From positions 65,808 to 129,807 of the IMG/VR virus record IMGVR_UViG_3300033120_000864: a stretch of 64,000 nt of DNA; one strand, 5' to 3'. The DNA comes from a virus. Taxonomy: Duplodnaviria > Caudoviricetes. Positions 59,417-60,781 of this stretch are shown in pieces (positions within the stretch are counted from its first letter, which is position 1; every line of letters starts with the position of its first letter). The position numbers were made by a program, and so were the translations under genes. The notes beneath the pieces are model-generated. The model saw only the letters and a program-made list of their open reading frames with translations. It was not told the origin of the DNA and made no database searches.

Positions 59417-59992
59417 ATGGCAACAATAAAAATAAAAAAATCAGAATTCCAAAAGCTATATAAAGTAGCTTGTGATGGATGGAAGACTAAATTTAATGAA
59501 AAGTTTAAACATCAATTATTTGATGATGAACTTGAATTTGAAGAGTCTTTCATTGAAGAAATGGAAAAGGCATGTGATTCAAGTAGGCCTGAACAATTAA
59601 AGACACTAAAAAGTATTTTTAAAGCATATATAAAAGAGAATATATTCTCTCAGATTAGAAACTATTCTGATGTATGTAAAGCTCTGAAGATAAAAGAACT
59701 CACAATAAGTGATTTCAAAGCCTTTGGGGAAGAAGCTAAAAAAATGCTAGCTTTTCATAAGATCAAGAATATAGAGAAGCTATTCAATGAAACGTGGAAG
59801 CCTAACTTTATAGATGGAAGTCAGTATAAGTACTATCCATATTTCACTGCAAATAAGAATGGTGGTCTGGGGTTCGGTGATTGCAGCTGCTACTACTCTG
59901 GCTTCTGTGGCCGTGTTGGTCTTTTTAAAGATTCTAAAACAGCTACATTTGTAGGAAAGACTTTCACAGATATCTATCAAGATCTCATATAG
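59417..59992 (+). CDS. DGR target protein 1
   Basis: 191 aa; contains VR1 in frame; paralogous to target 2 (WKPNF..GSQYKYYPYF; FVGKTFTDIY). Confidence 0.9.
   Translation: MATIKIKKSEFQKLYKVACDGWKTKFNEKFKHQLFDDELEFEESFIEEMEKACDSSRPEQLKTLKSIFKAYIKENIFSQIRNYSDVCKALKIKELTISDFKAFGEEAKKMLAFHKIKNIEKLFNETWKPNFIDGSQYKYYPYFTANKNGGLGFGDCSCYYSGFCGRVGLFKDSKTATFVGKTFTDIYQDLI
59861..59921 (+). repeat. Variable repeat VR1
   Basis: 61-nt ungapped match to 60015-60075 with 19 mismatches, all opposite TR adenines. Confidence 0.95.
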
Positions 59993-60014
59993 GTTTATAT
60001 ATTATTAATATTCT

Positions 60015-60075
60015 AGTAGTCTAGAGTTCAATGATTACAACAACTACAACTCTAACTTCAATAGCAATGTTAGTC
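60015..60075 (+). repeat. Template repeat TR1
   Basis: agt agt cta gag ttc aat gat tac aac aac tac aac tct aac ttc aat agc aat gtt agt c; AAC/AAT-rich, intergenic. Confidence 0.95.
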
Positions 60076-60202
60076 AATACTTATTTTAGTATATAAACCG
60101 TGCCTATTGGCAAAAAACTAAGACAACTTAACACTCTCTAGTAACTTCAATGTTGAAAAAGAGTTTAGATAAGTAAATTAATTAATCAAAACTTCCCAAA
60201 TA

Positions 60203-60685
60203 ATGACTCAGGAAAGAACTATAAAACTGACTTTACAAAAAGCTCAAGAATTATATAAGACAGCAGAAGCAAGTCTTAAAGCACTCCTTGAAGCTAACTT
60301 CACAAAGGCAGAGCTATCTACAAATATAATAGATAGAATAAAAAGTTGGGATAATGTGGTAGAGTATTTCTCATCAGAGAAAATAATACTTCCATATAGT
60401 GATCCTACAACAAAACAACAGAAGTCCACAAACGCCTTTGTTAAGCTTCAATATATAATTAAAGCTTTAAATGAAGGATGGATTCCAGATTTCACAAACT
60501 CAGGACAGTATAAATATTATCCTTGGTTTGAGAAAAAAGCTCATGGTGGCTGGGTTTTCGGCGGCTCTGGTTGCGGCGGCTGTGGTTCTGTTGTTGGGTC
60601 TGGTTTTCACCTTAAATCAAGGGAATTATCAGACTATGTAGGAAAACAGTTTTTAGATATTTATAAAGAATATCTACCAGAATAA
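60203..60685 (+). CDS. DGR target protein 2
   Basis: 160 aa; contains VR2 in frame; WIPDF..SGQYKYYPWF; YVGKQFLDIY. Confidence 0.9.
   Translation: MTQERTIKLTLQKAQELYKTAEASLKALLEANFTKAELSTNIIDRIKSWDNVVEYFSSEKIILPYSDPTTKQQKSTNAFVKLQYIIKALNEGWIPDFTNSGQYKYYPWFEKKAHGGWVFGGSGCGGCGSVVGSGFHLKSRELSDYVGKQFLDIYKEYLPE
60539..60609 (+). repeat. Variable repeat VR2
   Basis: 71-nt ungapped match to 60711-60781 with 22 mismatches, all opposite TR adenines. Confidence 0.95.
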
Positions 60686-60710
60686 ACAAGTTTACAACTT
60701 GAAATAAACT

Positions 60711-60781
60711 ACTCATAGTAGCTGAGTTTTCAACAACTCTAATTACAACAACTGTAATTCTAATATTGAGTCTAGTTTTCA
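60711..60781 (+). repeat. Template repeat TR2
   Basis: act cat agt agc tga gtt ttc aac aac tct aat tac aac aac tgt aat tct aat att gag tct agt ttt ca; intergenic. Confidence 0.95.

Follow-up and report, generated by a model that had tools for sequence, protein, structure and literature searches.

The window analysed here is a 64,000-nt stretch (positions 65,808–129,807) of the viral record IMGVR_UViG_3300033120_000864 (Duplodnaviria; Caudoviricetes), and it forms the final 64 kb of a metagenome-assembled phage genome of 129,807 bp that was rated complete by CheckV. At 59.4–61.8 kb it contains a diversity-generating retroelement (DGR) with two target genes, each carrying a variable repeat (VR) and followed by its own template repeat (TR) and a copy of a ~38-nt element, and with a downstream reverse transcriptase (RT). 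Most of the near-saturating A-to-G signal in the two VRs is the sum of a context rule shared with relatives and of a published G preference, which is somewhat stronger in the RT subclade of this phage. VR2 is one true extreme allele, most likely produced by a G-prone enzyme and then little selected; selection and nucleotide pools are live alternatives. Ordinary DGR adenine mutagenesis, in which the A-to-G excess comes from the way the RT family copies adenine and not from editing or artefact, is the explanation that we hold with moderate confidence. The parts of the element are as follows, in window coordinates.

59417–59992, + strand: target gene 1, 191 aa; small phage protein (PHROG 11581) that aligns with the target family
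59860–59922, + strand: VR1, variable repeat within target gene 1
60014–60076, + strand: TR1, non-coding template for VR1
60094–60131, + strand: conserved element of ~38 nt, copy 1, directly after TR1; direct repeat D2, 74% identity to 60800–60837
60203–60685, + strand: target gene 2, 160 aa; paralog of target 1
60539–60609, + strand: VR2, G-saturated variable repeat within target gene 2
60711–60781, + strand: TR2, non-coding template for VR2; in-frame TGA at 60723–60725
60800–60837, + strand: conserved post-TR element, copy 2; direct repeat D2
60894–61838, + strand: DGR reverse transcriptase, 314 aa; motif LGSYTSQ; Pfam RVT_1 at 1e-16 and PHROG 1423 at 1e-119

The element is a genuine DGR. The RT contained the [I/V/L]GxxxSQ motif, the differences between the repeats were confined to TR adenines, and the VRs were located in the 3' coding parts of their genes, 22–25 codons ahead of the stops of the 191-aa and 160-aa open reading frames (ORFs). 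Both TRs were intergenic, non-coding and near the RT, and exactly one VR was found for each TR in the whole genome.

The VR/TR pairs were taken from ungapped alignments, with offsets of 154 (VR1/TR1) and 172 (VR2/TR2). In VR1, 19 of the 23 TR adenines were altered (15 to G, 3 to T, and 1 to C) and 4 were kept, and in VR2, 22 of 24 were altered (21 to G and 1 to T) and 2 were kept. All 41 differences fell at TR adenines, with no mismatch at the 86 non-adenine positions, and the count of 41 changes at 47 adenines, 36 of them to G, that a sequence-only reading of the window had made by hand was reproduced exactly. Three extra A-to-T differences at 59923–59925, at the edge where the homology stops, stand outside the VR1 count. 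The 65 nt without A that the same reading had noted at 60544–60608 were borne out by a whole-genome run scan, in which this segment was the longest A-free run of the 129,807-bp genome (31% G+C and 35% A; expected number ~2e-7), and the next-longest runs were 31 nt, one of them within VR1. The Asn codons became mostly Gly, as that reading had also stated: six of the seven AAY codons of TR2 were GGY in VR2, where no AAY adenine was kept.

The VR alleles were identical on at least four contigs, and are therefore real haplotypes; one contig from a Joint Genome Institute metagenome (3300033066) was identical to the window over 4.3 kb. An assembly artefact, in which VR2 would be a majority-rule call or the best-covered route across a hypervariable population, is scarcely credible, although the record is metagenome-assembled and G is the commonest changed base. 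At the second AAY position the commonest base among relatives was A (.44–.52), so that a consensus would read A and not G, and on this ground the consensus artefact was rejected. Moreover, VR1 of the same assembly is a mixed haplotype, both alleles recur across the contigs mentioned above, and G-saturated VRs were present in independent assemblies from other sources.

In order to place these counts in a family context, loci were gathered via relatives of the RT, relatives of the target family (376 in viral and 441 in metagenome contigs), and phages from other assemblies that are closely related to this one. A scanner for ungapped repeats that mismatch only at the adenines of one copy found both pairs of the window and, in relatives, >230 distinct VRs. 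No TR was found within 2.5 kb at two of the loci (L171 and L173, of proteins P0004 and P0011). Patterns of TR1 and TR2 with N at each adenine had no match in the viral or metagenome contigs, and a megablast search of the locus against GenBank phages gave no match.

A large part of the G's was located in a single context. Eleven of the 36 G's of the window were at adenines preceding G (6 in VR1 and 5 in VR2), and all 11 sites of this kind read G. Such sites in relatives (n = 603) were 91% G and 5% A, independent of codon position. Within diversified tracts (n = 387) they were 84% G, 12% A, and <4% T plus C, and at synonymous third positions inside tracts they were G in 95 cases and A in 2 (58 distinct TRs). 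In the printed alignments, many TR adenines were G in every VR of every relative, and these adenines nearly always preceded G. The synonymous CTA-to-CTG change at 59867–59869, which had been taken to fit a mechanistic bias, does exist, but it lies in the A-before-G context, is G in nearly all relatives and is uninformative for this phage. The in-frame TGA of TR2 was also a site of this type, and became TGG in VR2. The in-frame stops of TRs coincided exactly with the conserved Trp (TGG) of the VR, and since A before G reads G in nearly all VRs, a stop in the template seems to be costless. In the phage group, 7 of 15 TRs (TR2 and those of loci L083, L084, L089, L127, and L258) hold an in-frame TGA or TAG, always before G.

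The likely cause of the A-before-G pattern is template slippage, in which the just-copied base is re-used, as modelled for bRT, the RT of the BPP-1 DGR (PMC12875486), or fixed flank differences of the initiation of mutagenic homing type (IMH/IMH*; PMC5758913). The synonymous and mid-tract sites favour slippage over the IMH-like flank differences. A general rule by which the 3' neighbour is copied suits A before G and was rejected, as it fails at A before C (C in 2–3%) and at AAT, GAT, and TAT. The 11 G's before G, like the ACT-to-GCT change at the 5' edge, are uninformative about this phage in particular.

A first pooled spectrum, with 56% of changes to G and 72% of adenines changed, was inflated by these constant A-before-G and flank sites, and the spectra were restricted instead to variable in-frame codons (AAY, [TGC]AY (NAY), and ATY). 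In 229 distinct related VRs (231 including the two of the window), the outcome at variable codons was G in.31, T in.20, C in.12, and kept A in.36 of cases, and 8.8% of the AAY codons read GGY. Synonymous adenines that do not precede G (n = 76) gave G.50, A.20, T.22, and C.08, which suggests that the raw output is richer in G, with fewer kept adenines, than the spectrum that survives at amino-acid-changing sites.

These spectra agree in direction with published enzyme data. In vitro, 52% of adenines were misincorporated by bRT, in the order dATP > dCTP > dGTP (PMC7826257). When bRT was reconstituted in E. coli, misincorporation was 31%, C made up 59% of the errors, the 3' neighbour had a strong effect, and AAU outcomes were biased to Gly and Asp (PMC12875486). 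The background assumed in the sequence-only reading, an A-to-N spectrum with many adenines retained, thus holds for BPP-1 as regards the retained adenines, at both of these rates, whereas C-dominated misincorporation in vivo had already been published (PMC12875486). Since the published bRT and Bacteroides spectra point the same way, the G preference is not new.

The A-to-G excess of the window consists of three layers. The first comprises about one third of the G's (the 11 A-before-G sites and the 5'-edge ACT-to-GCT change), at adenines that are G in the VRs of nearly all relatives, and would be caused by a 3'-neighbour context effect in synthesis of the complementary DNA (cDNA) or by fixed flank differences. 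In the second layer, at the truly variable adenines, C would be the commonest wrong base that the enzyme family inserts opposite A. In the third, the RT subclade of this phage, with Leu for Ile at the I181 position of bRT, would do so more strongly and keep fewer adenines. VR1 would then be a typical product of the subclade, and VR2 an upper-tail allele, probably little selected and nearly a raw cDNA copy. The counts, the existence of the three layers and the differences among VRs are established by the data, and from them we infer that the layers are mutational in nature and that Leu180 contributes to the third.

The RT was aligned residue by residue with the chain of PDB 8ub7 (E 9e-47, residues 2–304), which is annotated 'Reverse transcriptase' and which we take to be bRT of the Bordetella phage. 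In this alignment, Arg73 of the RT corresponded to R74 of bRT, and Leu180, located in the LGSYTSQ motif, to I181. Both bRT residues modulate adenine mutagenesis, and the I181N substitution halves it (PMC7826257). In the RT tree, five intact-frame RTs, those of the window and of loci L083, L259, L260, and L256, formed one clade with a support of 99. Loci L089, L127, L258, and L084 were assigned to the subclade by RT or target similarity and stand outside the tree. The members came from AT-rich phage contigs that measured 118–136 kb wherever their length allowed a judgement (L258 is a 47.5-kb contig), and each target had its own adjacent TR. With the RT as query, neither tblastn against phages nor a prokaryote genome scan gave a match above 53% identity, and no extra subclade members were obtained.

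The 13 subclade VRs besides those of the window had G at.48 and kept A at.24, and GGY was 27% of their AAY outcomes, against the 8.8% of the family (Fisher P 3e-6). In the comparison of RT active-site residues that had been proposed from the sequence, Leu was found at the I181 position in seven of the eight subclade RTs read (L127 has Ile), and Ile in 174 of 177 RT-bearing loci outside. Two neighbouring lineages had Leu (L175; G at 8 of 17) and Met (L004; G at 6 of 32). Leu180 may be regarded as a concrete lead for the G shift.

Two of the subclade RT genes, in L089 (5300–6280) and L127 (3050–4250), were split by frameshifts, and the break in L127 was at a G run just before YxDD. These splits could reflect a genuine loss of function, slippage that switches the gene on and off, or a mistake in assembly. 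Another subclade RT, P0057 (L256 and L257), had identical copies on at least 24 contigs, which came from many samples. The L256 and L257 loci came from two samples and had the same VR, so this allele is stable across samples.

When the two VRs were compared with these spectra, they differed in standing. VR1 was ordinary: its 17 variable-codon adenines gave 9 G, 3 T, 1 C, and 4 A, with P.05–.07 against the family and.47 against the subclade. VR2, with 15 G, 1 T, and 1 A of 17, was a real outlier against the family (P 2e-6 binomial, 1e-5 beta-binomial) and not against the subclade (P.016). Among the 231 VRs, the clear outliers were VR2 and one VR of L089 (12 of 14 G). A third G-saturated VR, with 11 of 14 G, was found in L260, also in the subclade. 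A reading of VR2 as an ancestral, never-diversified repeat is unlikely, since TR2, with its A-rich sequence, is older than the divergence from the sister phage (L083), whose VR is diversified.

A stronger version of the enzyme explanation, which we regard as possible and still doubtful, is that the subclade with Leu at I181 has an intrinsic near-saturating G spectrum, with a raw probability of G of at least ~0.65 at variable adenines and of ~1 at A before G. The raw libraries would then be biased to Gly, Cys, and Ser, and VR2 and the G-saturated VRs of L089 and L260 would be nearly unselected outputs.

Several observations weigh against attributing the excess to adenine copying by the RT. VR1 and VR2 share a single RT and yet have G shares of.53 and.88, the VRs of L089 had.86 and.40 G, and those of the sister phage L083, whose RT is 74% identical with the same motif, had.19,.27, and.55 G. 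L083 has a near-identical TR2 (4507–4573), and its VR at the same sites had 3 G, 6 T, 1 C, and 6 kept adenines. The subclade was heterogeneous (chi-square P.0015), whereas the rest of the family was homogeneous (P.07). Because the same RT gave such unlike VRs, a fixed enzyme preference alone cannot explain VR2. The proposal that the RT favours dCTP opposite A stands only as a graded property of the clade, seen in the 229 VRs, the synonymous sites and the subclade; the spectra of VR1 and of the sister L083 speak against a uniformly strong preference. In addition, every VR is a survivor of selection, the subclade sample amounts to 15 VRs, and the Leu/Ile correlation represents one evolutionary event. 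The synonymous adenines not followed by G are few, most of them from three contexts, and the A-before-G rule could also reflect conserved Gly and Trp codons together with IMH-like fixed flank differences.

The sister phage L083 also has a third target and TR cassette downstream of its RT (5644–6229; VR 5974–6046, TR 6157–6229). At the corresponding place in the window (61851–62153) there is an unrelated 100-aa ORF, apparently a membrane protein. Between the window and L083, the synonymous divergence (dS) was 0.30 for the target 2 scaffold and 0.96 for the adjacent RT, which may point to a later exchange of the target and TR cassette than of the RT.

Selection on the protein would explain the G excess in another way: small residues (Gly, Cys, and Ser) would be favoured in the variable loop of target 2, and the excess would be the nucleotide shadow of this preference. 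The loops of both VRs are rich in Gly, Cys, and Ser, and in VR1 the second AAY position was G in six of seven codons, with mixed first positions. G-saturated VRs recurred in homologous targets of three phages, the alleles were stable over four contigs, and a variant with a prior probability of ~1e-6 is within reach of a phage population. The target 2 scaffold outside the VR was under purifying selection when compared with the sister ortholog, with a ratio of nonsynonymous to synonymous rates (dN/dS) of 0.14, which indicates a protein in use and leaves selection for small residues as a credible factor. However, in the three G-saturated VRs the non-AAY sites (Tyr-to-Cys, Ile-to-Val, and Asp-to-Gly) were G in 8 of 9 cases by hand count (baseline.40, P.003), and both paralog types were affected, a target 2-like gene in L089 and a target 1-like gene in L260. 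Together these favour a base-level over an amino-acid-level cause. The sister ortholog, 84% identical in protein sequence, has an aromatic and acidic loop, and no function that requires a surface free of side chains is known. Selection for Gly-rich variants, which the sequence-only reading had listed, stays as a rival, but it leaves the saturated Tyr-to-Cys and Ile-to-Val changes unexplained, and we judge it rather unlikely.

An event-specific nucleotide pool would be compatible with a G share that differs per VR and not per RT: the VR2 cDNA would have been made under low dTTP and high dCTP, with C entering opposite nearly all adenines, and other events under other pools. The genome is 69% A+T, and its replication would draw mainly on dATP and dTTP. 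In the absence of TTP, bRT-Avd still made the full TR cDNA, with misincorporation at every adenine (PMC6182149), which makes pool differences between events a plausible source of the spread, and dCTP abundance has been suggested as a contributor to C misincorporation in E. coli (PMC12875486). By the published kinetics, however, the efficiency of misincorporation is ~20-fold under that of TTP, so that a very large imbalance would be needed. A loss of dTTP alone should also raise the T and C outcomes, which are nearly absent in VR2. We therefore give this explanation a small probability.

That the TR RNA undergoes A-to-I editing ahead of reverse transcription, with inosine copied as G, is very unlikely. 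Editing would yield G regardless of codon, as in VR2, L089, and L260, and the G shares of the subclade leave a gap from.62 to.79, which may point to two classes. Against this, no match to the cytidine/adenosine deaminase domain PF00383 was found in the 129.8-kb phage genome, and the graded G share over 246 VRs together with the published C preference accounts for most of the signal without editing. We know of no bacterial enzyme that hyper-edits long RNAs, and TadA requires a tRNA-like loop.

The ~38-nt post-TR element is likely a spacer or priming RNA element, by analogy with the Sp region of BPP-1 (PMC6182149). At their 3' ends, the VRs and TRs differed only at A before G (TR GAG TCT AGT and VR GGG TCT GGT), and relatives had similar fixed A/G differences. 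A search for Avd (PF05635) gave zero candidates at E ≤ 1 in the whole phage genome, and the interval between TR2 and the RT is too short for a gene. Avd is common among DGRs, yet not universal.

The AlphaFold2 model of target 2 (predicted local distance difference test score 91) was composed of a helical N-terminal part, a beta hairpin and loop bearing the VR (residues 113–136), and two C-terminal helices. Fold searches with this model gave no usable match, with a best E of 1.1 in Foldseek against PDB and a best Z of 4.5 in a wide VIA-align search. A C-type lectin fold is thus not evident in the predicted structure, although a missing match does not prove a different fold. Near the element, ARAGORN predicted a tRNA-like gene of 94 nt at 58297–58390 with a four-base anticodon (taac) and no amino acid assigned, and neighbouring ORFs at 58403–58834 and 62476–63027 matched PHROG 4786 ('cysteine dioxygenase', 2e-20) and Pfam UPF0114 (2e-15), respectively.

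When compared with the BPP-1 DGR (bRT-Avd, TR, and Mtd), the element shared mismatches at template adenines only, an RT that aligns over its full length with the 8ub7 chain and keeps R74 and the [I/V/L]GxxxSQ motif, a VR near the 3' end of the target gene, and a non-coding TR. For bRT in vivo, C is the commonest misincorporation and the 3' neighbour shapes the outcome (PMC12875486), in line with the spectra seen here. In contrast to BPP-1, this phage has no detected Avd, two private TRs for two targets, and Leu in place of Ile181. Variable adenines were changed at ~64% in the family and 76% in the subclade, compared with 31–52% for bRT, and A before C almost never became C here, whereas G misincorporation at such sites was 27–44% for bRT. 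The targets were small (160–191 aa), with no detected C-type lectin match.

The Bacteroides DGRs followed in culture and in mice (bioRxiv 10.1101/2024.11.15.621889) shared an uneven use of bases, with G and T about equal after A, and C rare. They differed in that A predominated at the majority of variable positions, with a share that frequently exceeded 50% at the second adenine of AAC. The Avd-less DGRs of crAss-like and other Bacteroidota phages shared the target family, tandem small early proteins, and had no avd between TR and RT; related RTs were present in crAss-like phages such as cr52_1 and cr56_1, at ≤52.5% identity. In most relatives one TR served two or three tandem targets, whereas this phage and its near relatives had a TR for each target and a higher G share.

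DGRs are under development as tools for targeted evolution, and the misincorporation spectrum sets which amino acids can be reached. The locus and its relatives give a comparative read-out of this spectrum in a large Avd-less phage lineage, together with a simple context rule, that an adenine preceding G is copied as G. Raw A-to-G counts exaggerate novelty unless the constant A-before-G sites are removed first. The subclade also provides a natural Ile-to-Leu variant at a residue known to modulate mutagenesis, which accompanies more G and fewer kept adenines. If the Leu subclade were intrinsically G-dominated, its templates could encode fixed Gly and Trp residues by adenine, and even an in-frame stop, free of cost, and one residue of the active site would offer a natural means of tuning the DGR mutation spectrum.

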